A stretch of 64,000 bases of DNA, taken from positions 195,811 through 259,810 of the forward strand of contig CANPFR010000001.1 in NCBI GenBank assembly GCA_947573445.1, read 5' to 3'. This stretch comes from an uncultured Clostridia bacterium (GTDB lineage Bacteria; Bacillota; Clostridia; TANB77; CAG-508). Positions within the stretch are counted from its first letter, which is position 1. Every line of letters begins with the position of its first letter. The notes beneath the pieces were generated by a model. The model did not search any database and was not told the DNA's origin. It saw only the letters and a list, made by a program, of their open reading frames with translations. The translations under genes and the position numbers were made by a program. Of this stretch, positions 11,475 to 47,174 are shown one piece after another.

Positions 11475-11566
<92 letters not shown>

Positions 11567-11579
11567 TTTTTAAATAAGT

Positions 11580-11670
11580 GGAGCAGTACCCAAGTGGTTG
11601 AAGGGGGCAGTTTGCTAAACTGCTAGGGTTCGTAAGGGCCGCGGAGGTTCAAATCCTCTCTGTTCCGCCA
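11580..11670 (+). tRNA. tRNA-Ser (anticodon GCT), with a long variable arm and encoded CCA
   Basis: Acceptor GGAGCAG/CTGTTCC (one G-U pair), anticodon loop TTGCTAA, and GGTTCAAATCC T-loop. Confidence 0.85.
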
Positions 11671-11675
11671 GTGTG

Positions 11676-11706
11676 AAATATAGAATTTAATTCTATATTT
11701 TTTTTG
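11676..11706 (+). terminator. Intrinsic terminator after the tRNA-Ser pair
   Basis: ATAGAAT-TTA-ATTCTAT followed by ATTTTTTTTT. Confidence 0.65.
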
Positions 11707-14700: not shown

Positions 14701-16052
14701 TTGTATGGAAAGAATAATATACATAAAAACAAAAAGAATATTGACTAAAAGACAAAAAAGTTAAAACCTAATCAATCTTATGGATACTGCTCTTTGATAG
14801 TAAGAAGGGGATAATAAGAAGAAAATCTATGAATCAGTTAAGAAAGTATAGTCTCAATAGAGTGGTGTGGATATAAAAAAACTTAGAGTTAGTTAATTAT
14901 AAACTTATGAATTAAAATTGATAAGATAATAAAAAACAAATATTTATAAAGTGTTTAAGTCATAGTTGAAAAATTAAAAATTCTATTGAAATTATATATA
15001 TTTATAAAATACAAACAAGAATAAATTAATAAAAAATAAAATACTAAAATAAAAAAATATAATTATTTTAGCACAGAAAAATAAAAAAGTTTTAAATAAT
15101 ATAAACAAACAAAAAAGAAATTCAAAAACAAAACAAAAACTAAATAAGTGTTGGACAAAAGAAATGATAATAATATAAAACATTTTTTGAAACTAAAACA
15201 AAAATAAAAGTAAAAACAAAAAACGAAACAACAATTATTAAAAAAACGAAAAACGAAAAACAAAAAATATAAAATAAAATTGTAAAATAGTAACGAAATG
15301 AAAATAATATCTTAAAAACAGATAACACAAAAAACAAAACAACATTTAATAGCATAAAATAAAAAGTAATTAAAAATAAAAATTCACAACAAAATAATTC
15401 ATAAAATTAAAAACAAAAAACAACAATAAAAACAAATAATAAGCCGAAGTCAGATAGATTAACTTAATAAAAAAGTTAAAATATGAAACAAAAAATGAAT
15501 TGTTAATAAATAAAATATAACAAAAATGGAAATGTAACAATAGAATTGTACTAAAAATATTAATTTATATGAATAAATAATAATAAACTTCAAGAATTAT
15601 AATGGAATATAAAATATAAGTAAGGAATTTTTACTTGTATATGATTATATTTGGAGCTAAGATATTAGTAATAATATAGGAAAGTAAACTCTGATTTTAC
15701 AATTAAAATTTTTAAAATCATTCCTTATCTAGAAAGGATTTGATTCAAAAATATAAAAGAGACATAAAAAGTTATATAAGAAATTATGAATGTTTGTTGT
15801 TATGAAAAATATAGGATAATAAATATGGGAAATAACAATAAAAACGTTTTTTATTCATTTATGTTATAGGTATACATAACATAAACAAAGAGGCTGTCTA
15901 AAAGACAAAAAAGAAAGTCATTTATGATTTGATGGATTATCTAAAAGGGAAAGTATCGTCTAATATTTCTATGACAACAAATAGAATTTATATGGAGGAA
16001 ATTGAATGATATGCTATTGATAAAATCAAAATTAAGGAACAAAACTAAGACA
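11707..16052. other. ~4.3 kb stretch with no ORF in any frame, extremely AT-rich and A/purine-skewed on the + strand
   Basis: The six-frame track shows only short minus-strand ORFs rich in F, L and I, which are artefacts of the T-rich complement. Long runs are almost free of G and C. Sub-blocks alternate between A/C-rich text (such as aaaacaaaa), AT-balanced text and A/G-rich text. The stretch is flanked by terminators at 11676-11706 and 16053-16091. Confidence 0.8.
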
Positions 16053-16091
16053 AAAAACTGACTACTAAAACGTGAAGTAGTCAGTTTTTTT
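16053..16091. terminator. Bidirectional intrinsic terminator (A-run, ACTGACTACT...AGTAGTCAGT, T-run)
   Basis: 10-bp perfect stem flanked by A6 upstream and T7 downstream. It is functional in both orientations. It ends the 16101-20429 gene on the minus strand and would end any + strand transcript of the AT-rich region. Confidence 0.7.
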
Positions 16092-16100
16092 AAAATTAAA

Positions 16101-19100
16101 TTAATTAATTTTTTCTTCAATTTTATTATTAGAAATATTTTCTTCCTCAAATTTAATTTTATTATTATTAATTTTATTTTTATTTTTTAAATTATCTTTT
16201 GCAACAGTCAATAATAATTTAATTCGATTTGTTTGATTTGTTTTACTTGCTCCAGGATCGTAATCTATTGCGGCGATATTTGCATATGGATATTTTTCAC
16301 GAATTGTTTTTATAACACCTTTTCCAACAACATGATTTGGTAAACAAGCAAATGGTTGTACACAAACAATATTTGGAATTTCATGTTCAATATATTCTAC
16401 CATTTCAGCTGTTAAAAACCAACCTTCTCCAGTTTGATTTCCAATGGATAAGATATTTTTTACTTTATTTTCTAGTTCCCAAATATCACAAGGTAATAAA
16501 TAATCTTTTTTTGATTTTTTTAATGCTTTTACATTATCTTTTTCAAAAAGAGAAATCAATTTTAATACAATTTTAAATATTGTAGATTTTGTTTTATCAG
16601 TATTTAATAAAGTATTGTTTGTAATTTTATGAGTACAAATAAATTTTAAAAATCCCATAAAATCTGGAGAAATGACTTCTGCACCTTCTTGTTCTAAAAC
16701 ATCAACAATATAATTATTTCCAAAAGGATGGTATTTAATCAAAACTTCACCCACAATGCCAACTTTTGGTTTAGTGATACTTAAATCAAGTTGGATATTT
16801 TCAAAATCTTCAACAATTTCATAAATGCTTTTTTTGAATTCTGACATATTGGTAGTTGAAACCAATGTCTTACATTTTTCTAACCAATACTCAAATTTTT
16901 CTTGTGTTTCGCCTTGATGTATTTCATAAGCTCTATTTTTATAAAGCAATTTTTGAAGTAAATCACCATATAATACGCCTTTTAACATTTTTTCAATCAT
17001 TTTTATATTGATTTTAAAGCCATTTGTTTTTTCCATTCCCACAATATTAAACGACACAACAGGAATATTAGGATAACCAGCATCTTTTAATGCTTTTCGA
17101 ATAAAACCAATATAATTGGTTGCCCTACAACCACCACCAGTTTGGGACATAATTAAAGCAGTCTTATTAATATCGTATTTTCCACTTTCTAAAGCCTCAA
17201 TCATTTGTCCAACTGTCAGAATAGATGGATAACAAGCATCATTATTAACGTATTTTAAGCCTGTTTCTACGGTGTGTTCAGTACAATCTTTTAGTAATTT
17301 GATATTGTATCCAAGCGATTGTACTGCCGATTCTAATAATTCAAAATGAATTGGAGCCATTTGTGGGCATAAAATAGTATAGCCTTTTTCTTTCATATTT
17401 TTGGTAAAAAATACTTTATCAATTTCATAATTTCCTAGTTTTTCAGGTGATTTGTGAGTGTTGATTCGTTTATTCATACTAGCTAAAAGTGAACGAACAC
17501 GAATTCGAATCGCTCCCAAATTGTTAATTTCATCAATTTTTATCAAAGTATACAAATTGTCATAACTTTTTAAGATTTCTTCAACTTGATCAGTTGTAAC
17601 GGCATCAACTCCACAACCAAATGAATTTAGCTGAATCATTTCTAAATAATCATGTTTTCCAACAAAATCAGCTGCTGCATACAATCTAGAATGATAAACC
17701 CACTGGTTTACAACACGAATTGGTTTCTTAATTTCACCTTGATTTTCAATACTATCCTCAGACAACACACATAATCCAAGTGATGTAATCAAAGTATCGA
17801 TACCATGGTTAATTTCTGGGTCAACGTGATAAGGGCGTCCAGCTAAAACGATACCACGCAAGTCATTTTTTTCCATATATTGCAAAACTTCTTTTCCTTT
17901 ATCACGTATATCTTTTTTGTATTTTTGATATTCAGTCTCAGCCTTTTCAGCAGCACTTTTCAATTCTGCTTTGTTGAAATTGTAATCTTTAAATTCTGGT
18001 AAAGATGAAATAATTTTTACTAAATTTTTTGTATTATCAATTGGCAAAAAAGAATTTATGTATTTAATATTCTTCAATTCTTCCACATTATTTTTGATGA
18101 CTTCCGAATATGAAATGACAATAGGGCAATTATAATGATTATCAGCTACTTCGTGCTCTTTTCTCGAATATGGAATACAGGGATAAAATATCGTTTTTAT
18201 GCCTTGGTTCAGCAAACTCATAATATGCCCGTGTGCTAATTTAGCTGGATAACAGACTGATTCTGAAGGCATTGATTCAATCCCTTTTTCATAAGTTTTA
18301 CGGTTGCTTTTTTCCGAAATAATCACACGGAAACCGAGATTTGTAAAAAACGTAAACCAAAATGGATAATCTTCATACATATTCAAAACTCTAGGAATGC
18401 CAATAGTTCCACGGTGGGCTTCTGATTCTTCCAAAGGCTGATAACTAAACAAACGTTCAAATTTGTATTGATAAAGATTTGGTAAATCATGATTTTGAGA
18501 AACTTCACCACTTCCTTTTTCACAACGGTTTCCAGAAATGAATTTTTTTCCATTATCAAATTGGTTAATAGTAAGTAAACAGTGATTTTCACAACCATTA
18601 CAACGAGTATGTGTAATTTGAATGTTCAATTTATCAAGCTCTTCTGCCTTTAAAATAGTGGAATGATATTCCATATCCATATTTGCGATAAATTGCTGTT
18701 TTGCCAATAATGCAACACCGTAAGCACCCATTAAACCAGAAATATTTGGTCTTACAACATCACGTTCTACAATGGATTCGAAACTACGAAGTACAGCATC
18801 ATTATAAAAAGTTCCACCTTGTACTACGATGTGTTCTCCTAAAGTATTGATATCTCTAACTTTCATAACTTTTTGAATTGCATTTTTAATAATTGAATAA
18901 GAAAGTCCAGCAGAAATATCACCAACTGAAGCACCTTCTTTTTGGGCTTGTTTAATTTTGGAATTCATGAAAACGGTACAACGTGACCCTAAATCCACAG
19001 GTGTTTTTGCGTTTAAGGCTTCTTGTACAAATTCCTGAATTGAAATTCCTAAACTTTTGGCAAAAGTTTCCAAAAATGAGCCACATCCAGAAGAACAAGC

Positions 19101-20429
19101 TTCGTTTAACATAATATTATCAATTGTATTATCTTTAATTTTAATATATTTCATATCCTGGCCACCAATATCGATGATGCTGGAAACATTAGGTTCAAAG
19201 GATTTTGCAGCAGTATAATGTGCAATTGTTTCAATTTCGTTCAAATCAATATTCAATCCAGTTTGGATTAATTTTTCACCATAGCCTGTAACGCCACTAA
19301 AACGTAGCTTTGCACCAGCAGGTAAAACCAAATATAATTGCTGTAACATCTGAATAACGGATGTAAGTGGGTTGCCATTATTATTTCGGTATAGGGAATA
19401 CAAAATTTCGTTTTTCTCATTAATTAAAACTAATTTTGTAGTTGTAGAACCTGCATCAATTCCTAAATAGCAGTTTCCAATATAACCTTCTAAAGGTGCT
19501 TCGTTAACAGTATGTTTGGCATGTCTTTCTTTAAAATCCTCATAATCATGTTTGGTTTCAAATAATGCAGGTAATGGTTTGCTTTCTGTATAATTTGATT
19601 TTTCAAATTTTTTGAGATTATTTTTCAACGTTTTTGTAGAGATGACTTCTGTTTCAACAGAAGAAAAAGCGGCACCTGTTGCAACCAATAAATGAGCATT
19701 TTCTGGAACGATGATTTCATCATCAGAAAGTTCAAGTGTTTCGATAAAACGTTTACGTAGTTCAGATAAATAGTTTAGAGGACCACCTAAAAAAGCGACT
19801 TTCCCTCGAATTGGCCTTCCGCAAGCCAATCCAGAAATTGTTTGATTAACAACCGCTTGAAAAATAGAAACCGCAATGTCTTGTTTTGCTGCACCTTCAT
19901 TGATTAGGGGTTGAATATCTGTTTTGGCAAAAACGCCACAACGTGAGGCAATTGGGTAAATTGTCTTGTAATCTTTGGCAAGTTCATTTAAACCAGTAGT
20001 ATCTGTGTTTAGCAAAGAAGCCATTTGGTCTAAGAAAGCACCAGTCCCACCAGCACAGGTACCATTCATACGTTGTTCGATAAATTTATCAAAATAAATG
20101 ATTTTTGCATCTTCTCCACCAAGTTCAATTACTACATCGGTTTGAGGAATCAAATTTTCCACTGCTTTTTTACAAGCAATCACTTCTTGAATAAAAGAAA
20201 TATTTAATAATCGTGAGATTTCTAATGCACCGGATCCAGTAAGGGACATTGTAAATTCTGCATTTGGATAATCTTTCACAAATTTCAATAAAACATCAGA
20301 CAGTGTTTTTTTTGTATCTGAGAAATGCCTAGTATAACTAGCATAAATTGGCTTTAATTGCTCATTTAAAATCATAATTTTTATGGTAGTAGAGCCAATA
20401 TCAAGTCCAACGTGTAATTTATTTTTCAT
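16101..20429 (-). CDS. Large fusion protein of the CoA-substrate-specific enzyme activase / 2-hydroxyacyl-CoA dehydratase family, with two BadF/BadG/BcrA/HgdC-type ASKHA ATPase domains plus a dehydratase-like domain
   Basis: 1442 aa with two acetate/sugar-kinase-fold phosphate-1 motifs (GLDIGSTTIK at the N-terminus, LGIDAGSTTTK mid-protein), Cys clusters, and a GGTFYNDAVLRSFE-type activase motif. Similar ~1400-aa activase fusions are typical of Clostridia, from memory. Confidence 0.6.
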   Translation of the reverse strand: MKNKLHVGLDIGSTTIKIMILNEQLKPIYASYTRHFSDTKKTLSDVLLKFVKDYPNAEFTMSLTGSGALEISRLLNISFIQEVIACKKAVENLIPQTDVVIELGGEDAKIIYFDKFIEQRMNGTCAGGTGAFLDQMASLLNTDTTGLNELAKDYKTIYPIASRCGVFAKTDIQPLINEGAAKQDIAVSIFQAVVNQTISGLACGRPIRGKVAFLGGPLNYLSELRKRFIETLELSDDEIIVPENAHLLVATGAAFSSVETEVISTKTLKNNLKKFEKSNYTESKPLPALFETKHDYEDFKERHAKHTVNEAPLEGYIGNCYLGIDAGSTTTKLVLINEKNEILYSLYRNNNGNPLTSVIQMLQQLYLVLPAGAKLRFSGVTGYGEKLIQTGLNIDLNEIETIAHYTAAKSFEPNVSSIIDIGGQDMKYIKIKDNTIDNIMLNEACSSGCGSFLETFAKSLGISIQEFVQEALNAKTPVDLGSRCTVFMNSKIKQAQKEGASVGDISAGLSYSIIKNAIQKVMKVRDINTLGEHIVVQGGTFYNDAVLRSFESIVERDVVRPNISGLMGAYGVALLAKQQFIANMDMEYHSTILKAEELDKLNIQITHTRCNGCENHCLLTINQFDNGKKFISGNRCEKGSGEVSQNHDLPNLYQYKFERLFSYQPLEESEAHRGTIGIPRVLNMYEDYPFWFTFFTNLGFRVIISEKSNRKTYEKGIESMPSESVCYPAKLAHGHIMSLLNQGIKTIFYPCIPYSRKEHEVADNHYNCPIVISYSEVIKNNVEELKNIKYINSFLPIDNTKNLVKIISSLPEFKDYNFNKAELKSAAEKAETEYQKYKKDIRDKGKEVLQYMEKNDLRGIVLAGRPYHVDPEINHGIDTLITSLGLCVLSEDSIENQGEIKKPIRVVNQWVYHSRLYAAADFVGKHDYLEMIQLNSFGCGVDAVTTDQVEEILKSYDNLYTLIKIDEINNLGAIRIRVRSLLASMNKRINTHKSPEKLGNYEIDKVFFTKNMKEKGYTILCPQMAPIHFELLESAVQSLGYNIKLLKDCTEHTVETGLKYVNNDACYPSILTVGQMIEALESGKYDINKTALIMSQTGGGCRATNYIGFIRKALKDAGYPNIPVVSFNIVGMEKTNGFKINIKMIEKMLKGVLYGDLLQKLLYKNRAYEIHQGETQEKFEYWLEKCKTLVSTTNMSEFKKSIYEIVEDFENIQLDLSITKPKVGIVGEVLIKYHPFGNNYIVDVLEQEGAEVISPDFMGFLKFICTHKITNNTLLNTDKTKSTIFKIVLKLISLFEKDNVKALKKSKKDYLLPCDIWELENKVKNILSIGNQTGEGWFLTAEMVEYIEHEIPNIVCVQPFACLPNHVVGKGVIKTIREKYPYANIAAIDYDPGASKTNQTNRIKLLLTVAKDNLKNKNKINNNKIKFEEENISNNKIEEKIN

Positions 20430-32777: not shown

Positions 32778-35744
32778 ATGGGGGATAGACTTGCAGAGAT
32801 TAGAAAAAAACTAGAAAAATATGGTCAAGAGCATGTATTGATGTTCTATGATAAAATGGATGAAGATGAGAAAAATAAATTGTTAAATAAAATTGAAAAT
32901 ATTGATTTTGATTTAATGAATGACTTATATCAAAAGGCAAATCAACCTATGGATTTGAAAAAAGAAGTAATCGAACCAGTTGAATATGTTGAAAAAGCAA
33001 AATTAACAGTGGCAGAAAGAAATGTATATGAGCAAAAGGGAATTGAGGCTATAAAAAAGGGGAAATATGCTGTTGTTACAATGGCTGGAGGACAAGGAAC
33101 TAGACTTGGTCACAAAGGGCCAAAAGGAACATTTGACTTGGGATTAGATTCGCAAAAATCAATTTTTGAATTATTATGCGAAGGAATTAAAAAAGCAATG
33201 TTTAAGTATGAGACAATTATTCCTTGGTACCTTATGACAAGTGAAGAAAATAATGACCAAACAGTTGAATTTTTTGAAAAGCATAACTATTTTGGGTACC
33301 CAAAAGAAGCTATACATTTTTTCAAACAAGGCCAATTACCAATGCTTGATTTGAATGGAAAGATATTACTTAATGAAAATGGAGCTATAAAAGAGGCGGC
33401 CAATGGCCATGGTGGTACACTTCAGTCAATGGAAAGAAGCAATGTTATAAGTCAGATGAGAGAAAATGGAATCGAATGGGTATTTATTAGTGGTGTTGAT
33501 AATATCTTGGCCAATTTGGTTGATCCATTATTAATTGGAATGTCGATTTCTAATAAAGTGTATAGTGCTGTAAAATCAGTTGAAAAAATTGACCCAAAAG
33601 AAAAAGTAGGTGTTATTTGCAAGAAAAATGGAAAAGTAGGAGTTATTGAATATACTGAAATCTCTGATGAAATGGCCAATATGAGGGATGATTATGGTTC
33701 TTTGGTTTATGGAGATGCCAATGCCATTATGCAATTGTTTAATATCAAAGCATTGGAAAAAGTGATGGATTTGAAATTACCTTATCATACAGCTGTGAAA
33801 AAGGCTAATTATATTGATAATATGGGCAAATTGATTGTCAGTGACGAACCAAATGCCTACAAATTTGAAATGTTTATTTTTGATGCTTTTGAAATGTTAG
33901 ATGATGTTCTGACTTTACGTGTTAAAAGGGAGGAAGAGTTTGCTCCAATTAAAAATGCAGAAGGAGTAGATAGTCCAGAAACAGCAAGAAAATTGTACAT
34001 TGATTTCTTCTCTAAATTGAATTATATGAAAAAATATAGCGAATGGTGCACGAATCCAGCATTTGATGAAGAAACGCGTCATGAATTATTGTTGATTGCT
34101 GGTGATGAAGAAGAAATTAAAGATCGATTTTATAAAGATTTGGAATTTGGAACAGCTGGATTAAGAGGAGTTATAGGCAATGGTACCAATAGGATGAATG
34201 TTTATACGGTGACAAAAGCGACACAAGGTTTGGCAAATTTTATTATTCGAGAAGGTAGCGAAAACAAAGGTGTTGCAATTTCGTATGATTCAAGAAGAAT
34301 GTCTAAAGAATTTGCCATTGAAACAGCATTATGCTTGAATGCTAATGGAATTAAAACGTATATTTTTGATGAGATTAGACCAGTACCAGAATTATCCTTT
34401 GCTGTAAGAGAACTTGGGTGCACAGCTGGAATTATGATTACAGCTAGCCATAATCCACCAGAATACAATGGTTATAAAGTATATTGGGATGATGGAGCTC
34501 AAATTGTAGCACCAAAAGATAAAGAAATTATTGAGGAAGTAAATAATGTATCAGATTATTCATTAGTTAAAAGAATGACTTATGAAGAGGCTCAAAATAC
34601 AGGTTTGTACAATATTGTGGGAAGTGCTATGGATAAATTATATTTAAATGCTATCAAAAAACAGGTATTAAATCCAGAAATGATAAAAGAAGTGGAAAAA
34701 GATTTAAACATTGTTTATACACCATTACATGGCACTGGAAATAAGCCCGTACAGAAAGTTTTAGAAGAACTTGGCTTTACGAATGTATATGTGGTTCCTG
34801 AGCAAGAATTGCCAAATGGCAATTTTCCGACGGTAGAATATCCAAACCCAGAAGATCCAAAAGCGTTTGAATTAGCATTGAAATTGGCAAGAAAAGTAGA
34901 TGCAGATGTTGTTTTAGCAACTGACCCAGATGCTGATAGATTAGGAGTATTTTCTAAAGATTCTGCAACTGGTGAATATGTATCATTTACAGGAAATATG
35001 TCAGCTTTATTAATTGCAGAATATGTTTTATCACAAAGGAAAGAAAAAAATTTGATGCCTAAAAATCCTGCGTTTGTCTCAACTGTAGTTTCATCAAACT
35101 TGGCAGGAGCAATTGCAAAAGAATATAATATGCATTTTGTAGAAACATTAACAGGTTTTAAATTTATAGGTGAGCAGATTAGAAATTTTGAGACAACAGG
35201 AGAATACGAATATGTATTTGGATTTGAAGAAAGTTATGGATGTTTAGTTGGAACACATGCAAGAGACAAAGATGGAATCACAGCCGTTATGATGCTTTGT
35301 GAGGCAGCAGCTTTTTATAAAAAACAAGGTTTAACATTATGGGATCAGATGCTTAAAATATACGAAAAATATGGATATTACAAAGAAGAAACGGTTATGA
35401 TTACACTAAAAGGTGCAGATGGAGCAGTTAAAATTAGAGAAATTATGGATATGATAAGAAGTAATCCACCAGAGGAAATTGGTGGTTATAAGGTTTTAGA
35501 AAGAAGAGATTATAAAACAGGATTTACAATTGATACTACAACAGGACAGGAAGGAAAAACAGGACTTCCAATGTCGAATGTTTTATATTATGCGATGGAA
35601 AATGATGTGTGGTGTTGTGTGAGACCTTCTGGGACGGAACCAAAAATCAAATTCTACATGGGGGTTAAAGGCAAAACAATGAAAGATGCAGATAAGCAAT
35701 TGGCTAAGTTAAAAAAAGCCATGATGGCTTTGGCTGAAAAATAG
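32778..35744 (+). CDS. Bifunctional fusion: UDP-sugar pyrophosphorylase (UDPGP/UAP1 family) N-terminal half plus phosphoglucomutase/phosphomannomutase (PgcA-like alpha-D-phosphohexomutase) C-terminal half
   Basis: The N-terminal half has the UDPGP signature MAGGQGTRLG. The C-terminal half begins with a PgcA-like N-terminus (MKKYSEW...FYKDLEFGTAGLRG) and has the active-site Ser loop TASHNPPEYNGYK. It is a single uninterrupted 988-aa ORF. Confidence 0.7.
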   Translation: MGDRLAEIRKKLEKYGQEHVLMFYDKMDEDEKNKLLNKIENIDFDLMNDLYQKANQPMDLKKEVIEPVEYVEKAKLTVAERNVYEQKGIEAIKKGKYAVVTMAGGQGTRLGHKGPKGTFDLGLDSQKSIFELLCEGIKKAMFKYETIIPWYLMTSEENNDQTVEFFEKHNYFGYPKEAIHFFKQGQLPMLDLNGKILLNENGAIKEAANGHGGTLQSMERSNVISQMRENGIEWVFISGVDNILANLVDPLLIGMSISNKVYSAVKSVEKIDPKEKVGVICKKNGKVGVIEYTEISDEMANMRDDYGSLVYGDANAIMQLFNIKALEKVMDLKLPYHTAVKKANYIDNMGKLIVSDEPNAYKFEMFIFDAFEMLDDVLTLRVKREEEFAPIKNAEGVDSPETARKLYIDFFSKLNYMKKYSEWCTNPAFDEETRHELLLIAGDEEEIKDRFYKDLEFGTAGLRGVIGNGTNRMNVYTVTKATQGLANFIIREGSENKGVAISYDSRRMSKEFAIETALCLNANGIKTYIFDEIRPVPELSFAVRELGCTAGIMITASHNPPEYNGYKVYWDDGAQIVAPKDKEIIEEVNNVSDYSLVKRMTYEEAQNTGLYNIVGSAMDKLYLNAIKKQVLNPEMIKEVEKDLNIVYTPLHGTGNKPVQKVLEELGFTNVYVVPEQELPNGNFPTVEYPNPEDPKAFELALKLARKVDADVVLATDPDADRLGVFSKDSATGEYVSFTGNMSALLIAEYVLSQRKEKNLMPKNPAFVSTVVSSNLAGAIAKEYNMHFVETLTGFKFIGEQIRNFETTGEYEYVFGFEESYGCLVGTHARDKDGITAVMMLCEAAAFYKKQGLTLWDQMLKIYEKYGYYKEETVMITLKGADGAVKIREIMDMIRSNPPEEIGGYKVLERRDYKTGFTIDTTTGQEGKTGLPMSNVLYYAMENDVWCCVRPSGTEPKIKFYMGVKGKTMKDADKQLAKLKKAMMALAEK

Positions 35745-35802
35745 AAAAGAGCATGGATGAAGTTTCATCCATGCTTTTTTGATAGTCAAGAAGTGGAAAG
35801 TT

Positions 35803-36459
35803 TTATTCATAGCCAAATTTTCTTTTTAGTTCTTCTGGATCCAAATCTAAAGCAGAAGCTAACATCAAAAGAGTATTTAAATATGGTTTTTTTGTTTTAC
35901 CAGTTTCAATGTTCCATAGTTGGCAGCGTGTTAGGCCAGTTATATCAGCCAAATTAATTATTGATAAATTTTCTTGAATACGGACATTTTTAATCAATTG
36001 TCCACCAGACAGATTTTTATCTAAGTTATAGGTATGTCTAAATTCTTTTTTAAGTTCTTCTAGATCTAAGTGCAAAGTATGAGATAGTTTTAGAAGTGTA
36101 CTTAAATCTGAATTTTTAGTTTTACCAGATTCTAAAGCTTGAATAACATGAGGAGCAATGTCAGAAATTTCTGCCAATTGTAGTTGTGATAAGCCAAGTT
36201 GTAAACGAGTTCTTGCAATCAAATTGAATTCTGAAGTATCAACATCTGTTTTTGGCTCTAAAATTGAATTTAAAACGGAAATTGTTTTCGGATGAAATTT
36301 TCTGACAACCCCTTGTTCAATTTGGACCAGGGTGGATAATGACAAATTAAATTGCCTTGCAAAGTCTATCTGCCGAAGGTTATGTTTTAAACGATACTCT
36401 TTTACTAATTTTGCTAAATTTTCTGTTTCCATTTTTCCTCCTAATATTTTTGATGACAT
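35803..36459 (-). CDS. XRE-family transcriptional regulator with three tandem HTH (Cro/C1-type) domains; paralog 1 of 3
   Basis: Three repeats of the LRQ...LSLSTL.QIE.G-type HTH_XRE motif in 218 aa. Confidence 0.7.
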   Translation of the reverse strand: MSSKILGGKMETENLAKLVKEYRLKHNLRQIDFARQFNLSLSTLVQIEQGVVRKFHPKTISVLNSILEPKTDVDTSEFNLIARTRLQLGLSQLQLAEISDIAPHVIQALESGKTKNSDLSTLLKLSHTLHLDLEELKKEFRHTYNLDKNLSGGQLIKNVRIQENLSIINLADITGLTRCQLWNIETGKTKKPYLNTLLMLASALDLDPEELKRKFGYE

Positions 36460-36480
36460 GATTTAAGAAACATTTTAAAA

Positions 36481-37137
36481 TTAGTATCTAAATTTAGATT
36501 TTAATTCATCTAAATTTAAATTTTCAAGGCTATTGGCTAAAATTTCTAAAGTTAAAAGATGTGGTTTTTTTGTCTTACCAGTTTCAATGTTCCGTAATTG
36601 GTGGTGTGTTAAGCCAGTTATATTAGCTAAATCAACTGTTGATATATTTTCTCGAATACGAGCATTTCTAATCAATTGTCCGCCAGACGGATTTTTATCT
36701 AAATTATAGATGTATCCAAATTCTTTTTTTACTTCTTCTAGGTCTAAGTTCAAAGCACGAGATAGTTTTAGAAGTGTACTTAAAGCTGGACTTTTTGTTT
36801 TACCAGATTCCAAAGCTTGAATAACATTAGGATCAACATCAGAAAGTTCTGCCAACTGTAGTTGTGATAAACCAAGTTGTAAACGAGTTCTTCTAATCAA
36901 ATTGAGTCCTGAAGTATCAAAATTTATTTTTTGCTCTAAAATTGAATTTAAAATAGCAACTGTTTTTGGATGAAATTTTTTGGCAACCCCTTGTTCAATT
37001 TGGGCAAGGGTACATAATGACAAATGAAGTTGCTTTGCCAGATCTTTTTGTCGAAGTCCATGATCTAAACGATAATCCTTTACCAATTTTGCTAATTTTT
37101 CTGTTTCCATTTTTTCCTCCTGATATTTTGATGGCAT
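36481..37137 (-). CDS. XRE-family regulator with three HTH domains; paralog 2 of 3
   Basis: About 85% nucleotide identity to paralog 1 by eye. Same length, and a conserved RBS and intergenic spacer. Confidence 0.7.
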   Translation of the reverse strand: MPSKYQEEKMETEKLAKLVKDYRLDHGLRQKDLAKQLHLSLCTLAQIEQGVAKKFHPKTVAILNSILEQKINFDTSGLNLIRRTRLQLGLSQLQLAELSDVDPNVIQALESGKTKSPALSTLLKLSRALNLDLEEVKKEFGYIYNLDKNPSGGQLIRNARIRENISTVDLANITGLTHHQLRNIETGKTKKPHLLTLEILANSLENLNLDELKSKFRY

Positions 37138-37158
37138 TCTTCAAGAAACATTTTAAAA

Positions 37159-37848
37159 TTAATATCCAAATTTAGATTTTAACTCATCTAAGTTCAGCTT
37201 TTCAAGATTATTGGCTAAAATTTCTAAAGTTAAAAGATGTGGTTTTTTTGTCTTACCAGTTTCAATATTCCGTAGTTGGTGGTGTGTCAGGCCAGTTATA
37301 TTAGCTAAATCAGCCGTTGATAAATTTTCTCGAATACGAGCATTTTTAATCAATTGTTCACCAGATGTATTTTTTTTCGGACAGTACGTATAGCCAAATT
37401 CCCTTTTTACTTCTTCAGGATCCAAATGTAAAGTAAGAGCCAAAGTTAAAAGTGTATTTAGATGTGGTTTTTTGGTTTTACCAGTTTCTAAATGGTGAAT
37501 GACCTGAGGTTTAATCCCAGATTTGTTGGATAACTGTCGCAGAGACAGACCTAATTGTAACCGGGTCTTTGCAATTAAGTTCAATTTTGAAACATCCATG
37601 TTTAATTTTGAATCTAGAATCAAATTTAAGGCTGAAATTGTTTTAGGCTGAAACTCTCTAACAATGCCTTGTTCAATTTGTGATAAGGTGGCTACTGACA
37701 AGTTAAGCTGTTTTGCCAGATCTTTCTGTCGAATCTTATGTTTTAACCGATAATTTTTTACTAATTCAGCTAAATTTTTTCTTCCATTTCTTTTCCTCCT
37801 AATATTTTTTAATATTAATAGTATACCATAATTTACATAATAAATCAA
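37159..37848 (-). CDS. XRE-family regulator with three HTH domains; paralog 3 of 3, with the N-terminal frame disturbed at an A6 homopolymer
   Basis: The conserved RBS and ATG (start at about 37787) are out of frame with the body because of the A-run in ATGGAAGAAAAAATTTAG. The open frame instead runs upstream to 37848. Confidence 0.6.
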   Translation of the reverse strand: MIYYVNYGILLILKNIRRKRNGRKNLAELVKNYRLKHKIRQKDLAKQLNLSVATLSQIEQGIVREFQPKTISALNLILDSKLNMDVSKLNLIAKTRLQLGLSLRQLSNKSGIKPQVIHHLETGKTKKPHLNTLLTLALTLHLDPEEVKREFGYTYCPKKNTSGEQLIKNARIRENLSTADLANITGLTHHQLRNIETGKTKKPHLLTLEILANNLEKLNLDELKSKFGY

Positions 37849-37911
37849 GGCCTTTTAAAGATTTCGTCATAAATTGGTGGTTTTTCAATATAATTTTATT
37901 AGGAGGTTTTT

Positions 37912-38502
37912 ATGTTAGAGAAAATTAATTTACCTTATGCTTTAAATGCTTTGGAGCCGTTTTATAGTAAGCAAACGTTAGAAATACATTATCAAACTTT
38001 ATATTCGGCTTATGTTGATAATACCAATAAAACAGAAGAAAAATTAAAACAGGCTCGAAAAAATAATGATTTTGAAAATATAAAATGTTTAGAAAAAGAA
38101 TTATCCTACCAAGGTTCGGGTGCTATTTTGCATGAATTATTTTTTGAGAATTTGGGACCTGTTACACAATCAGGACCAAGTACAAAACTGATGCATCAAA
38201 TTAGCAAAGATTTTGGGACATTTGGTATGTTTAAAAGCCAGTTTACAGCAAGTAGTAAGGCAGTTGAAGCGTCTGGATGGAATTTGCTTGTATGGGTTCC
38301 GAAATGGAAAAAATTGCAAATTTTACAATGTGAAAAGCATCAAAATTTAACACTTTGGGGATGTAAACTATTACTAGTATTAGATATGTGGGAACACTCC
38401 TATTTTTTGCAATACAAAGCGAATCGTGCAGAATATGTAAATGCATTTTGGAATATTGTAAATTGGAATGCAGTAAATGGAAGGTTTGAAGAGGTTGTGT
38501 AA
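37912..38502 (+). CDS. Fe/Mn superoxide dismutase family protein, divergent in its second-sphere residues
   Basis: SOD fold motifs DMWEHSYFL and WNIVNW are present and the metal-ligand positions are conserved. The N-terminal HHxKHH block is degenerate (EIHYQTLYSAY). Confidence 0.65.
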   Translation: MLEKINLPYALNALEPFYSKQTLEIHYQTLYSAYVDNTNKTEEKLKQARKNNDFENIKCLEKELSYQGSGAILHELFFENLGPVTQSGPSTKLMHQISKDFGTFGMFKSQFTASSKAVEASGWNLLVWVPKWKKLQILQCEKHQNLTLWGCKLLLVLDMWEHSYFLQYKANRAEYVNAFWNIVNWNAVNGRFEEVV

Positions 38503-38603: not shown

Positions 38604-39416
38604 TTAATCGATAGAAGTAAGTGCATTAACTACTTTTGTGCATTTTCCATTTTGGAAAATAAATGAGTAAGTTTTTGATGCATCAGGACTGGTTGTTTCT
38701 TCAGGTGTTGATGGGGTGTAATTTTTAAAGTTTTCTGCAACGGTTGTATCTGGTTCGAAACCGCCAGCACAAATAGTGTTTCCAGGAATTACAATTTCTT
38801 TATAATTAGTTGTTAATTTCCAAACATCGCTTAACTGTGCTTGACATTCTAAATAATATTCCTTAGAATTTTTTGCTTTTATTTTGTAAAGAACATAATT
38901 GCTAGAATCATATACATCAAATTCATTTCCATTGGGTTTTACTAAATAATTTTTTTTATCTAATTGAATGGAATTGGAATCTAGTATCTGATTCAATTCA
39001 TTTGCTGATATTGTATATTGTGTATAAATAACGCCTTGTAATGTATAAGAATTGTCATTATTTTTTTCAGCATTTGTGACATACAAAACATCAATTCCAT
39101 CTAATTCTTGCGTAATCTGACTATAATTGTGAGTATCAGAAGTGCTGTCAACAATTGATGTGTTTTGTGTGGCTGTATTTGAATTATTTTCATCAGGAAC
39201 AGTGTTATCTAAGGTATTAGAAATACTACTAATTTTGTCTTGTAGAGTATTGATTTGTGTTTCTTTACTAGATAAATTATTTTGAAGTTCATGAATACTT
39301 TCAGCATTTGAATTTTTTACTTGTGATAATTGATACCCCATCAAAATGATAATAATAACTAAAAGCAAAATAATCATAATATAGAGAATGTTACTTACAT
39401 TATTTTTCTTTTCCAT
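38604..39416 (-). CDS. Hypothetical membrane-anchored protein (270 aa)
   Basis: N-terminal TM helix, a coiled-coil/low-complexity region, and a Cys-containing C-terminal domain. Confidence 0.4.
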   Translation of the reverse strand: MEKKNNVSNILYIMIILLLVIIIILMGYQLSQVKNSNAESIHELQNNLSSKETQINTLQDKISSISNTLDNTVPDENNSNTATQNTSIVDSTSDTHNYSQITQELDGIDVLYVTNAEKNNDNSYTLQGVIYTQYTISANELNQILDSNSIQLDKKNYLVKPNGNEFDVYDSSNYVLYKIKAKNSKEYYLECQAQLSDVWKLTTNYKEIVIPGNTICAGGFEPDTTVAENFKNYTPSTPEETTSPDASKTYSFIFQNGKCTKVVNALTSID

Positions 39417-39493
39417 TTTTTACCTCCTCCTTATATTTATTGTATACAAAAGGTAAGAGTTTTTCAAGTAGTTTGGAGGAGAATTTTTTTATA

Positions 39494-39528
39494 AAAATCC
39501 CCCAGTACAACTGGGGGATAATTTTTTC
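39494..39528. terminator. GC-rich bidirectional terminator (TCCCCCAG-TACAA-CTGGGGGA flanked by A/T runs)
   Basis: Perfect 8-bp G/C stem, which is rare in this genome, with T-runs on both sides. Confidence 0.7.
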
Positions 39529-39581
39529 TATCTCATTGAATAAAATAGAAATTTTCTGCCCTTCCTCAGTGGTAGGACGAA

Positions 39582-40019
39582 TTAAGAGACTGGGTCTAGT
39601 TTATATAAATAATCAATAACTTTGCCATTTTTACATACTAAATAGCTTTGGTAGGCCAAATCAGATTTTCGCAAGATAGTTGTCTCTGAAACACCCTCTT
39701 GTGAAAGCTGGTAAGTATTATCATCGATTTTCTGGGCTTCAATAATAGTTGTTTCATAGAAATAACCATTTTTTTCTACCCAGTTTACAGCTCCTTTTTC
39801 GATGTAACGACAATCGGAAATAGTTGAATCTTGCGTGCTCCAAGCAATTAGACTACCCAATGGGCAGACAATATGTTTTTTAGAAAAAGTTAAATAGATA
39901 TTATCCTGGATGACTGCAACGTAATTCCAGAGAATTTGCGGAATATCATAGTCATTTTTTACCCGAGTGATATTGAAATTTGTTCCCAAGTCTTCGGGAA
40001 CCAGAAAAATTTTTTTCAT
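39582..40019 (-). CDS. Hypothetical protein (145 aa)
   Basis: ORF with an RBS. Matched no family I recognise. Confidence 0.4.
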   Translation of the reverse strand: MKKIFLVPEDLGTNFNITRVKNDYDIPQILWNYVAVIQDNIYLTFSKKHIVCPLGSLIAWSTQDSTISDCRYIEKGAVNWVEKNGYFYETTIIEAQKIDDNTYQLSQEGVSETTILRKSDLAYQSYLVCKNGKVIDYLYKLDPVS

Positions 40020-40154
40020 GAGGTTACCTCCTTGTTATTTATATGATTTGTGAAAATATAACTTATATTATAATCTATTTTACATAAATTGTCAATATTG
40101 ACATGCTGAAAATTTAGTGATATAGTAGAAAATATACTAAGAAAGGGAACAAAA

Positions 40155-40883
40155 ATGGAAAACAAAAGAAGTAGCCAAAATATAAAGATTTTAATTATAA
40201 TTAGTGCACTTTTATTCATTATAGGTGTTTTTATAGAAAACTTAAATGTGGGACAAGTAAATGATAAAGTAGCTAGTTTGACTGCAGAAGAAGAAACCAA
40301 TGTGGTAGAGAAAACGGTATTGGATACAGAAAGAATTGCAGCAGCCTATGTTCCAAGAAGAGAAGTAGCTAGTGAAGAAGTCGTTTCGAGATATGCCAAA
40401 GCACGTCAACGTGAATTATATAATTCGATTGATGAGATTACGATTTCAAAAGACATGGATTTAACGGTTAGATGTAATGTATCAAGAGAGGATTTTATCA
40501 CATTAATGGCAGGTGTAAAAGCAGATACATCAGGTTTTTTTGAGCAAAATGCAGGTTTAATTTATGATGTGTGTGAAAAATATCAATTAAATGAAATATT
40601 TTTCTGTGGTTTAATTTCAGCAGAATCTGGTTGGAATATAGCAGGAAATCATAGGAGAACACATAATTATATTAGTTTGATGGGAAAAGGGGGCTTACTT
40701 CAATTTGCATCGATTGAACAAGGCCTTGAAAAAGCAGCTAGTACTTTGCATTTCAATTACTTATCAGAAGGTGGAAGATTTTATTATGGTAAAACATTGG
40801 CTGCGGTAAGAACAAGATTCTGTCCAGTTAATCCTAATTGGACCAATTTGGTTTATGGGAGAATGCAACAAATTGTAAAATAA
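40155..40883 (+). CDS. Membrane-anchored hypothetical protein with a weak glucosaminidase (GH73/FlgJ-like) ...AESGWN... motif
   Basis: N-terminal TM segment. The C-terminal domain contains LISAESGWN. The family assignment is weak. Confidence 0.35.
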   Translation: MENKRSSQNIKILIIISALLFIIGVFIENLNVGQVNDKVASLTAEEETNVVEKTVLDTERIAAAYVPRREVASEEVVSRYAKARQRELYNSIDEITISKDMDLTVRCNVSREDFITLMAGVKADTSGFFEQNAGLIYDVCEKYQLNEIFFCGLISAESGWNIAGNHRRTHNYISLMGKGGLLQFASIEQGLEKAASTLHFNYLSEGGRFYYGKTLAAVRTRFCPVNPNWTNLVYGRMQQIVK

Positions 40884-41168: not shown

Positions 41169-41804
41169 ATGGAATTTTTATTTACTTTTTTAGAAGGAAT
41201 TGCGAGTTTTGTATCACCTTGTTTATTACCAATGATTCCAATTTACATTGCCTATTTTACGGGTGAAAATGAGGAAAAATCAACTAAAACTGTGATAAAT
41301 GCAATGGGATTTGTTTTAGGGTTTACAGTTGTATTTTTGATATTGGCAATATTTGCGAGTCAACTGGGAAAATTGGTGAGTAGCCATATGAAATTTATAA
41401 AAATTATATTTGGAATTGTTATTATCGTATTTGGTTTGTATGATATGGAGTTGTTAAAACTTAGTTTTATGAGCAAAATGAGAGGAATGAAGGCAAATGT
41501 GAAAAATTTGAATTTTATAAAATCATTTTTGTTTGGAATGTTATTTTCGATAAGTTGGACGCCTTGCATAGGAACTTTTTTGAGTTCAGCACTGTTATTG
41601 GTTGCTAAAGGCCAACAATTATTAAAAGGAATTTTGCTCATGTTGATTTATTCGATGGGACTTGGAATTCCATTTATAGTGTCTGTTTTGTTGCTTGAAA
41701 AATTAAAAGGGATTTTTGATATTATTAAAAGAAATTTTAGCAAAATCAGAAAAGTTTCAGGTGGAATTTTGATTGGTATGGGAATTTATGTGATTTTCTT
41801 TTGA
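41169..41804 (+). CDS. ccdA: Cytochrome c-type biogenesis protein CcdA (DsbD-family thiol-disulfide transporter)
   Basis: 6-TM protein with the conserved Cys in the first TM (SFVSPCLLPMIP) and a second Cys in TM4 (WTPCIG). Confidence 0.8.
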   Translation: MEFLFTFLEGIASFVSPCLLPMIPIYIAYFTGENEEKSTKTVINAMGFVLGFTVVFLILAIFASQLGKLVSSHMKFIKIIFGIVIIVFGLYDMELLKLSFMSKMRGMKANVKNLNFIKSFLFGMLFSISWTPCIGTFLSSALLLVAKGQQLLKGILLMLIYSMGLGIPFIVSVLLLEKLKGIFDIIKRNFSKIRKVSGGILIGMGIYVIFF

Positions 41805-41815
41805 AGGAGAAAAGT

Positions 41816-42247
41816 ATGAAAAATAAATTTATTATGATTGTTTTGTGTCTTATTTTTATTGTGGGATTGTTTGCTATAAAGGGAGTGCTTAAAACGCAAG
41901 GAAATAATGGACAAAATCAAACTATGGAGGAGGAAAAAATGAGTGTTTTAGAAGTAACAGGAAGTGAATTTGAAAGGGAAGTTTTGCAAAGCGAGAAACC
42001 AGTTTTAGTGGATTTTTATGCAGATTGGTGTGGTCCATGTAAAATGTTGGCTCCATTGCTTGAGCAAGTGGCGACAGAAAATGATGCCATAAAAGTATGT
42101 AGAATTAATGTTGATGAAGAACAGGATTTAGCTGTAAAATATGGAATTATGTCCATACCAACTCTTGTTGCTATCAAAAAAGGAGAAGAAGTCAATCGAA
42201 GTGTTGGGGTTGTTGATAAAGAAGAGATTTTGGATATGTTCAAGTAG
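41816..42247 (+). CDS. Membrane-anchored thioredoxin (partner of CcdA)
   Basis: The WCGPCK active site follows an N-terminal TM anchor. The gene is translationally coupled to ccdA. The likely start is ATG 41816 after an AAGGAG RBS. Confidence 0.8.
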   Translation: MKNKFIMIVLCLIFIVGLFAIKGVLKTQGNNGQNQTMEEEKMSVLEVTGSEFEREVLQSEKPVLVDFYADWCGPCKMLAPLLEQVATENDAIKVCRINVDEEQDLAVKYGIMSIPTLVAIKKGEEVNRSVGVVDKEEILDMFK

Positions 42248-46234: not shown

Positions 46235-46639
46235 ATGAAAATGGAGAAGAAAAGACGGGAAGAAATTATAGCACTTTTGAAAAAAGAGAAAAAGCAATAT
46301 GAACACAAGCTTCGGGAAGTGCAAATTTTGTTTCGGGAGTTGAAAGATATGGAACATGATGGGCATATTTCCAAGGAAGTAAAAAAATACATTGATAAGT
46401 ACAAGCTTGAAGCAGGTGCTAGGTTATATATGCAGTTAATAGCAGATGTGAGTCGGATAATATTGGCTGTAGAAGAGGGAGAAACGAATGTAGACTGTTT
46501 AGGGCAATTGTATGATGGAGAGATGTATCCAGAGCTTTTTGATATTATCGAAAAAGTTGGATTTGAACATCGGGGTATTAGTGCAATAATTCAGTTTTCA
46601 GAAAAATTGGGTTTGGACATCGGGGCATTAGTGCAATAA
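46235..46639 (+). CDS. Hypothetical protein (134 aa) whose C-terminus is altered by a 50-bp tandem duplication
   Basis: RBS AAAGGAG. The 3' end contains two 50-bp direct repeats (46559-46608 and 46609-46658). Confidence 0.4.
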   Translation: MKMEKKRREEIIALLKKEKKQYEHKLREVQILFRELKDMEHDGHISKEVKKYIDKYKLEAGARLYMQLIADVSRIILAVEEGETNVDCLGQLYDGEMYPELFDIIEKVGFEHRGISAIIQFSEKLGLDIGALVQ

Positions 46640-47174
46640 TTCAGTTTTCAGAATAATTTAAGCAAAATATTTCTCAAAAGGAGGCTCTAAGAGTAATTCT
46701 CGAGCCTCCTTATTATAAAAAACAGCCAAACTTGATGTTTGCAATTCTGTTTGGCTGTTTTTTTATATTTACCGTTTAAAGAAAGAGCCATCTGGACGGA
46801 TGACAAGAATGTCACCTTTATTAAGTGTCTCTGATTTATTATTGGTTGAAAGTACACCATTATAGGGTACTTTTATGATTTTCTCAGCAATTAGATTTTC
46901 TTCATTTGAATCTCTCCAATTGCCTGAAAAAAACTCTTTTTCCTTTTTACAATTTCTTCGGTGCTAATGATTGCTTGTCCGTTCCGAATTTCAATTGTTA
47001 TATTAAAAATTTTTTCTGTCATAGCGAGTCTCCTTCCTTGTCACAAGAGTGACGTTGTATACATTGTTTTTAAGTATTACTATATTAAAAAAAAGACGGT
47101 TGAAATATTCAAAATACTATGTAATTTTGATACTTCAACCATCTCTAAAATAAGATAAAAAGACATTAAAAAAT

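Follow-up and report, generated by a model that had tools for sequence, protein, structure and literature searches.

Three tandem paralogues with three XRE-type helix-turn-helix domains each, the middle one a domain-swap hybrid, in an uncultured Clostridia bacterium

Introduction

Few kinds of bacterial transcription factor are as common as the regulators of the XRE (Cro/CI) family, which are understood almost wholly as dimers on palindromes. The family includes 434 Cro and the 434 repressor, SinR, DdrO, C.BclI and CylR2, and its classical members combine one helix-turn-helix (HTH) domain with a dimerisation or sensor part. Here we describe a locus in a 64,000-nucleotide stretch of contig CANPFR010000001.1 (assembly GCA_947573445.1, positions 195,811 to 259,810 of the forward strand) from an uncultured Clostridia bacterium; this whole stretch is called the window below, and all positions refer to it. 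Three consecutive minus-strand genes within the span 35803-37848 encode paralogous proteins which, in contrast to the classical members, have three HTH domains per chain and nothing else. All nine domains belong to the XRE family by sequence, and single domains of a structure model have the same predicted fold as members named above.

Several systems in which more than one HTH domain is placed on a single chain have been described, and they provide the closest comparisons. The single-chain 434 repressors engineered by Simoncsits et al., in which XRE domains are linked to each other, reportedly bind composite operators as monomers, asymmetric operators included; they are artificial and have two domains, and therefore offer a mechanistic analogy only. 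Cbp1 of the Sulfolobales is a single small chain in which three HTH domains, produced by domain duplication and joined by short linkers, are lined up 5' to 3' along an asymmetric DNA site, the repeat of clustered regularly interspaced short palindromic repeats (CRISPR) (PMC10883916). The window proteins resemble it in being three-HTH single chains, again as a mechanistic analogy only, whereas Cbp1 is archaeal and no CRISPR array lies near the window locus. The HTH domains of Cbp1 are also of a different, homeodomain-like type, and kinship in sequence is not expected. Wmk, the male-killing protein of the Wolbachia prophage WO, carries two XRE-type HTH domains per chain (PMC12504857). We compared the window proteins with the Wmk family (NF047948) and rejected membership, as they score 34-46 bits against a cut-off of 300. 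CasPRIB2 has four C-terminal HTH domains, which its activity does not require, and the CasPRs are defined by CapR and AP2 (bioRxiv 10.64898/2026.02.23.707548). The likeness here is that of several HTH domains per chain, and the difference is that CapR and AP2 are absent from the window proteins. Our literature searches brought up no functional study of proteins that consist of tandem XRE domains alone.

Results

Three paralogues in a tandem array with a 678-bp period

The array consists of three open reading frames (ORFs) arranged head to tail on the minus strand (35803-36459, 36481-37137 and 37159-37848), which we number from the lowest coordinate, so that gene 3 is the first to be transcribed in the operon proposed below and gene 1 the last. 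The start-to-start spacing of the units is exactly 678 bp in three copies, as found by a repeat search other than Tandem Repeats Finder, which was silent on the array because its longest period, 500 bp, is shorter than 678 bp. Every unit carries AGGAGG 4-7 nt ahead of an ATG. In the unit alignment the genes are separated by conserved 48-nt spacers, at 37111-37158 between genes 3 and 2 and at 36433-36480 between genes 2 and 1 (both on the minus strand), each with the AGGAGG in front of the ATG of the gene that follows. Two exact occurrences of the spacer sequence GAAACATTTTAAAATTA were found, at 36467 and 37145, against a chance expectation of 0.04, in agreement with an earlier note on this DNA, which had reported conserved ribosome-binding sites (RBSs) and spacers.

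The RBS-linked ATGs at 36432 and 37110 yield 209-aa products of gene 1 (35803-36432) and gene 2 (36481-37110), as in the public gene calls, and these are likely the true starts rather than those of the 218-aa ORFs, in which the RBS would fall within the coding sequence. Just upstream of the gene 3 RBS lies a promoter-like site, TTGATT-17-TATACT with a TG-extended -10 element (37820-37848, minus strand), recognised by its match to the consensus only. After gene 1 comes a terminator-like hairpin of 11 pairs followed by a T-run (35750-35775, minus strand), shared with the convergent UDPGP-PGM gene. The simplest reading of this layout is a single operon in the order gene 3, gene 2, gene 1. Another promoter-like sequence, TTGAAA-18-TAAAAT, is conserved within the 3' ends of genes 3 and 2 (37176-37205 and 36498-36527, minus strand), ~65 nt ahead of the next ATG, and the downstream paralogues may have their own promoters.

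The window comes from a metagenome-assembled contig, and short contigs from other samples break within the repeat, both of which would be compatible with a single gene falsely expanded to three, or with a homopolymer error in the A6 tract of gene 3 (see below). However, two metagenome contigs in the European Nucleotide Archive reproduce both junctions and the A6 tract from two other samples. One of them (L001, sample SAMEA7076284) is 100% identical over 35218-36585, including gene 1, and spans the unit 2/unit 1 junction, and the other (L013, sample SAMEA7076250) is 100% identical over 36866-37873 and bridges units 3 and 2 as well as the A tract. The two contigs break off inside the stretch common to the units, as expected of short-read assembly over a true repeat. 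Moreover, 20-31% of positions differ between units, and each unit has indels of its own, which shows that the three are not copies of one sequence, and all frames are open with a ratio of nonsynonymous to synonymous divergence (dN/dS) below 1. An assembly artefact is effectively refuted by these observations, and the tandem paralogue array of the earlier note, which had named an assembly duplication as one finding that would undo it, proves to be real.

Pfam confirmed the nine HTH domains that had been counted in the three products. Each protein contains three stretches that match HTH_3 (PF01381; E 1e-23 to 1e-26; cut-off 23 bits, scores 83-93 bits), and no domain other than HTH_3 was detected by Pfam in any of the three products, bearing out the description of a triple HTH without a sensor domain. 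The whole 209 aa are made up of the three HTH domains and two linkers of ~12 residues. Domains 2 and 3 are clear sister repeats with the signature ...IE(S/T)GKTK.P...TL..L...L.LD.EE.K.(E/K)F.(Y/H), and domain 1 is more diverged than these and lacks the C-terminal tail. In the AlphaFold2 model of the gene 2 product (predicted local distance difference test score, pLDDT, 90.7; predicted template-modelling score, pTM, 0.70), 14 helices form three bundles of four to five helices, as in the XRE fold, whose HTH is made by helices 2 and 3. Foldseek against the PDB aligned one domain at a time, to 434 Cro, SinR, DdrO, C.BclI and CylR2 with target template-modelling (TM) scores of 0.7-0.87, and single predicted domains superpose on 434 Cro, SinR and CylR2 with a root-mean-square deviation of 1.1-2.2 A. 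None of the solved structures among the Foldseek matches covers more than one of the three domains, and the query TM score is <=0.30, implying that the three-domain chain is unrepresented among solved structures.

The middle gene is a hybrid of its neighbours

Over the whole unit, the pairwise nucleotide identity is 79.5% between units 1 and 2, 75.0% between units 2 and 3, and 69.1% between units 1 and 3, and the mean column identity in a MAFFT alignment of the three units is 87%. The earlier estimate of ~85% identity, made by eye, thus holds locally but not overall, where the pairwise values are 69-80%, since the array is a mosaic. Across alignment columns 120-480, units 1 and 2 are 85-92% identical whereas unit 3 is 58-78% identical to either; across columns 480-685, units 2 and 3 are 87-97% identical whereas unit 1 falls to 55-58% toward the 3' end. 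By domain, gene 2 is 85-92% identical to gene 1 in domains 1-2 and 92-97% identical to gene 3 in domain 3. To the left of the best breakpoint, 106 informative sites group unit 2 with unit 1 and 30 group it with unit 3, and to the right the corresponding counts are 8 and 44 (maximum chi-squared 61.7, permutation p<=1e-4). The inferred breakpoint lies in unit 2 at 36662-36680 (minus strand; residues 144-150), which, on the helix map taken from the AlphaFold2 model, is the start of helix 1 of HTH domain 3, i.e., the boundary between domains 2 and 3. These data show that gene 2 is a hybrid, with domains 1-2 from the lineage of the last gene (gene 1) and domain 3 and the downstream spacer from the lineage of the first (gene 3).

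The two halves of the hybrid are separated from their donors by similar synonymous divergence (dS 0.20-0.31 and 0.35), and dS between the outer genes in domains 1-2 is 0.9-1.5. The suggestion that the duplications are recent therefore applies to the hybrid segments (dS ~0.2-0.35) but not to the outer genes, and the array is not uniformly recent. For all pairs and segments dN/dS is 0.15-0.56, with values of 0.26-0.54 for the reading frames, which shows that all three frames, that of gene 3 included, have been kept by purifying selection.

The array has a constant period, a chimeric middle copy and a single breakpoint, all of which are as expected of an array formed by unequal crossover. We suggest that a single such event in an older two-gene array would have misaligned A-B with A-B and produced A-[B5'/A3']-B by exchange at the domain 2/3 boundary, and the same event would account for the likeness of both spacers. 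A point against this history is that a later gene-conversion tract over domain 3 would leave the same hybrid pattern. Gene-conversion tracts were among the things that the earlier note had proposed to look for in the unit alignment; the alignment gives a mosaic with a single breakpoint.

The start codon of gene 3 is out of frame with an intact body

Gene 3 (37159-37787, minus strand) differs from the other two at its start. Its minus strand reads AGGAGGaaaagaaATG GAA GAA AAA ATT TAG, and the ATG (37787-37785) opens a mini-ORF, ATG GAA GAA AAA ATT TAG, which terminates at 37770 and is out of frame with the 204-codon body (37776-37159). The frame is lost at an A6 tract (37775-37780, minus strand) that is one base shorter than the frame of units 1 and 2 needs, so the out-of-frame start described earlier is borne out; on the plus strand the tract reads T6. 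If one A is added, or if tRNA-Lys slips by -1 on A-AAA-A, the frame reads MEEKNLAELVKNYRL (MEEKNLAELVK), collinear with the METENLAKLVKEYRL (METENLAKLVK) that genes 1 and 2 encode. There is no ATG, GTG or TTG in the body frame behind the gene 3 RBS, and the 'TTG start' of the 229-aa gene 3 ORF coincides with the -35 hexamer of the promoter-like site. The body itself is free of stop codons and, compared with genes 1 and 2, has a dN/dS of 0.26-0.28. L013, the assembly of another sample, has the same A6 state. Since L013 is fragmented at the array and hence is not the source of the 260-kb contig that holds the window, a homopolymer sequencing error, which had been raised as a possible cause, is unlikely.

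The intact and constrained body implies that the lesion is either young or bypassed. We lean toward a recent inactivating or attenuating mutation: A6 would be a genuine allele, the lesion would silence or strongly cut the translation of gene 3, and genes 2 and 1 would keep their own RBSs. The other possibility, to which we give a minor share, is that gene 3 is still expressed through the A tract, by slipped-strand phase variation (A6/A7) or by -1 ribosomal or transcriptional slippage on GAA-AAA-A, in which case paralogue 3 would be a low-level or switchable product. The restoration of a collinear N-terminus by a single shift, the stop-free body under constraint and the lack of an alternative in-frame start are all consistent with such expression, as is the position of the slip site, two codons ahead of the stop and with a strong Shine-Dalgarno sequence ~14 nt upstream. 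However, A6 is short for a contingency tract, the tract has the same length in both assemblies compared, only a weak RNA hairpin follows downstream (-10.1 kcal/mol, z -1.4, not significant), and the heptamer A-AAA-AUU is not of the canonical form X-XXY-YYZ and permits P-site slippage only.

Relatives share a repeat subtype

Close homologues outside this lineage appear to be lacking, as none was found in the searches made. A word-indexed search of 5.8 billion proteins returned the three paralogues only, and a 22-sequence profile added very few proteins; no close relative was found among 185,579 GTDB species representatives, which gave single-HTH proteins at 40-45% identity only, and a scan of metagenome contigs gave one irrelevant 39% match. 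HMMER against 1.84 billion cluster representatives gave 1563 matches at E<1e-3, of which 142 reach E<1e-10 and 10 reach E<1e-30. Most of these are multi-HTH proteins, with many three-repeat proteins of 205-232 aa, proteins of 360-530 aa with 5-8 repeats, and giants of 1200-2000 aa, and in gut metagenomes and phages it is common to find XRE proteins with 2 to 9+ HTH repeats. The comparative search for triple-HTH architectures that the earlier note had called for thus shows that its word 'unusual' was an overstatement, given 142 matches at E<1e-10 of which most are multi-HTH and many have three repeats in ~210-230 aa. Among the metagenome representatives, P0015, P0018, P0047 and P0075 are giant poly-HTH_3 chains, each 1235-2059 aa long and each with at least 3-9 XRE domains; one of these giants ends in a Peptidase_S24 (LexA/CI-type) domain and one has HEAT repeats.

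The poly-HTH_3 proteins of gut Firmicutes and their phages, with three repeats (P0009, P0010, P0011, P0013 and P0056) or five to eight (P0004, P0005 and P0006), have in common with the window proteins a ~70-aa repeat of the subtype ARxxxGLSxxxLAxxxGIS...IExGKTKKP..xTL..La..L.LD...L....GY, and often an equal total length of 205-232 aa. On the other hand, their identity to the window proteins is just 24-36%, the window domains 1, 2 and 3 have no preferred positional partner in them, and the domains within one relative are closer to each other than to the window domains, which suggests that the three-repeat form arose repeatedly. The shared entity would appear to be a repeat-prone XRE subtype that was multiplied independently many times, and not an ancient three-domain family. 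None of these relatives is named and none has a reported function. The few contexts that we traced contain no tandem gene arrays and no shared neighbours; they comprise a phage replication module, a plsX/acpP neighbourhood, and a site near an integrase at which the relative takes the CI position facing a Cro-like gene. In a scan of viral contigs the same HTH subtype was met only as single-domain Cro-like proteins opposite CI-S24 repressors, and multi-HTH proteins in BFVD are annotated 'repressor CI'. From these comparisons of sequence, the array is best filed as a lineage-specific paralogue expansion of a little-studied but common architecture within the XRE family.

In a related organism, two contigs of ~500 bp show a gene-3-like copy (65-70% amino acid identity) beside the same terminator and PGM gene. 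In L021 (1-502, coverage 1.7x) the gene-3-like copy runs straight into a gene-1-type terminator and has a frameshift of its own in the A-rich GKTKKP codons. L022 (1-555, coverage 0.9x) looks like a chimera, in which part of the regulator gene is joined to the PGM gene at the latter's end. Both are too poor to give the copy number in the sister lineage.

Chromosomal neighbourhood of the array

The array is convergent with the UDPGP-PGM fusion gene and, as the earlier note had it, divergent from a gene for an Fe/Mn superoxide dismutase (SOD; 37912-38502, plus strand, Pfam), which we give as context only. The flanking genes are chromosomal housekeeping genes, namely those for SpoIIR, a GNAT acetyltransferase, UDPGP-PGM, SOD, CcdA, thioredoxin and RecQ, and the array has the same GC content as its flanks, 30-32%. 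The organism, a spore-forming gut Firmicute known from metagenomes alone, has a GC content of 28.8%. The redox genes around the array are the Fe/Mn SOD gene and, beyond three ORFs (38604-40883) that have no Pfam or PADLOC match, the overlapping CcdA/DsbD_TM and thioredoxin genes (41169-42247). At the sod RBS, a 31-nt segment (37872-37902) shares 74% identity with the part of each unit that encodes domain 3, at a spacing of 598; it may be either what is left of an older unit or, the DNA being AT-rich, a chance match. On the other side, the fusion gene (32778-35744, plus strand) is a 988-aa ORF in which a UDP-sugar pyrophosphorylase (UDPGP) is fused to a full four-domain phosphoglucomutase/phosphomannomutase, an uncommon fusion that joins two consecutive steps.

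Farther away in the window, ~4.4 kb at 11700-16100, downstream of two tRNA genes (11475-11667), have a GC content of 13-23%, no ORF of >=100 aa and no Rfam match. The adjoining gene (16101-20429, minus strand) encodes a 1442-aa protein with two acyl-CoA dehydratase activase (CoA_E_activ / BcrAD_BadFG) modules, and a 50-bp tandem repeat of 2.2 copies with a 91% match lies at 46550-46658.

Discussion

We consider it probable that the three genes form one chromosomal operon and that their paralogous products of ~209 aa are single-chain DNA binders, each of which reads a tripartite operator as a monomer with its three XRE HTH domains. Each protein would bind as a monomer, because no oligomerisation or ligand domain is present, and, by analogy with Cbp1 and the single-chain 434 repressors, its operator would be a single extended, non-palindromic site of ~30 bp with three major-groove subsites in a row, one for each recognition helix. 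Autoregulation is the default expectation for XRE proteins, and the likeliest target would be the operon's own promoter. As this promoter is back to back with that of sod, co-regulation of the two would be possible. The paralogues differ at recognition-helix positions, and overlapping but distinct site preferences are therefore probable.

Several results weigh against this proposal. The 125-bp promoter region shared with sod (37787-37911) contains no convincing triple, periodic or palindromic repeat beyond the two RBSs that could serve as an operator, and the 14-mers of this region do not recur at other promoters in the 64-kb window. The differences among the paralogues are not enriched in the recognition helices, at ~27% there compared with 29% overall by a hand count. 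Finally, the monomer is deduced solely from the absence of other domains, and the helix 5 tails could mediate dimerisation as they do in SinR and the C-proteins.

The earlier note had read the divergent arrangement as pointing to a redox or stress role. In its strongest form this would make the array a dedicated redox or oxidative-stress regulator of sod, and we think this unlikely: the two promoter regions do stand back to back within ~125 bp, and the genes for CcdA and thioredoxin are 3-4 kb distant, but divergent placement is common by chance, neither a cysteine cluster nor a metal site nor a sensor domain is present in the three proteins, the lack of an operator motif in the shared promoter region counts here as well, and none of the relatives adjoins sod in the contexts retrieved, where the neighbours are unrelated. 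The basis of the claim is the adjacency of the two loci. A very unlikely origin is that of domesticated mobile-element modules, i.e., remnants of phage CI/Cro-type repressors or type II antitoxins retained to control toxins or to confer immunity to superinfection, and not to regulate host genes. Cro-like proteins in Firmicute prophage switches are of the HTH subtype seen here (NIETGKTK...), the distant multi-HTH relatives in phage replication modules or in the CI position beside an integrase and the multi-HTH 'repressor CI' proteins of BFVD are in line with such an origin, and genes 1 and 2 score above the cut-off for TIGR03070 (HipB-type antitoxin HTH), if only as the sum of three domains. 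The setting of the array in the window argues otherwise, as it has no integrase, toxin, cro partner or phage gene nearby, housekeeping flanks and a GC content that matches them. No phage or integrase genes were found at 29.8-46 kb, nor any toxin, integrase or defence genes near the array, where PADLOC matched only generic HTH.

Two specific assignments were rejected on the same grounds: a type II antitoxin of the HipB, HigA or MqsA type has no adjacent toxin here, the neighbours being paralogues, UDPGP-PGM and SOD, and a prophage CI/Cro lysogeny-switch repressor has no prophage setting at 29.8-46 kb, with GC equal to that of the flanks. Most improbable among the functional alternatives is that the proteins are architectural or chromatin-like and bind some repeated DNA element in another part of the genome, instead of acting as classical promoter regulators. 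Cbp1, with its three HTH domains on a repeated asymmetric site, sets a precedent, and three paralogues at operon dosage would suit abundant binding; however, the 64-kb window contains neither a CRISPR nor another candidate repeat array, and there is no evidence of high expression. The operon of single-chain regulators is the reading that we prefer.

Apart from this, the locus is an ordinary genome feature, a lineage-specific expansion of regulator paralogues in which one copy has a damaged start. Its most interesting element is the natural domain-swap hybrid, which hints at the shuffling of HTH modules by recombination at domain boundaries. As a speculation that we hold with little confidence, XRE repeats of the GKTKKP type may serve as modules for reading DNA, each HTH with a subsite of its own, and arrays may recombine such modules at domain boundaries into new composite specificities. 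If so, gene 2 would combine domains 1-2 of one paralogue with domain 3 of the other, and the repeat would be a bacterial counterpart of the logic of Myb repeats or zinc fingers, which would explain why proteins with three to more than nine repeats are common in gut Firmicutes and their phages. With three diverged copies and a natural domain-swap hybrid, the locus offers a handy test system for how chains of HTH domains read DNA and how their specificity evolves.

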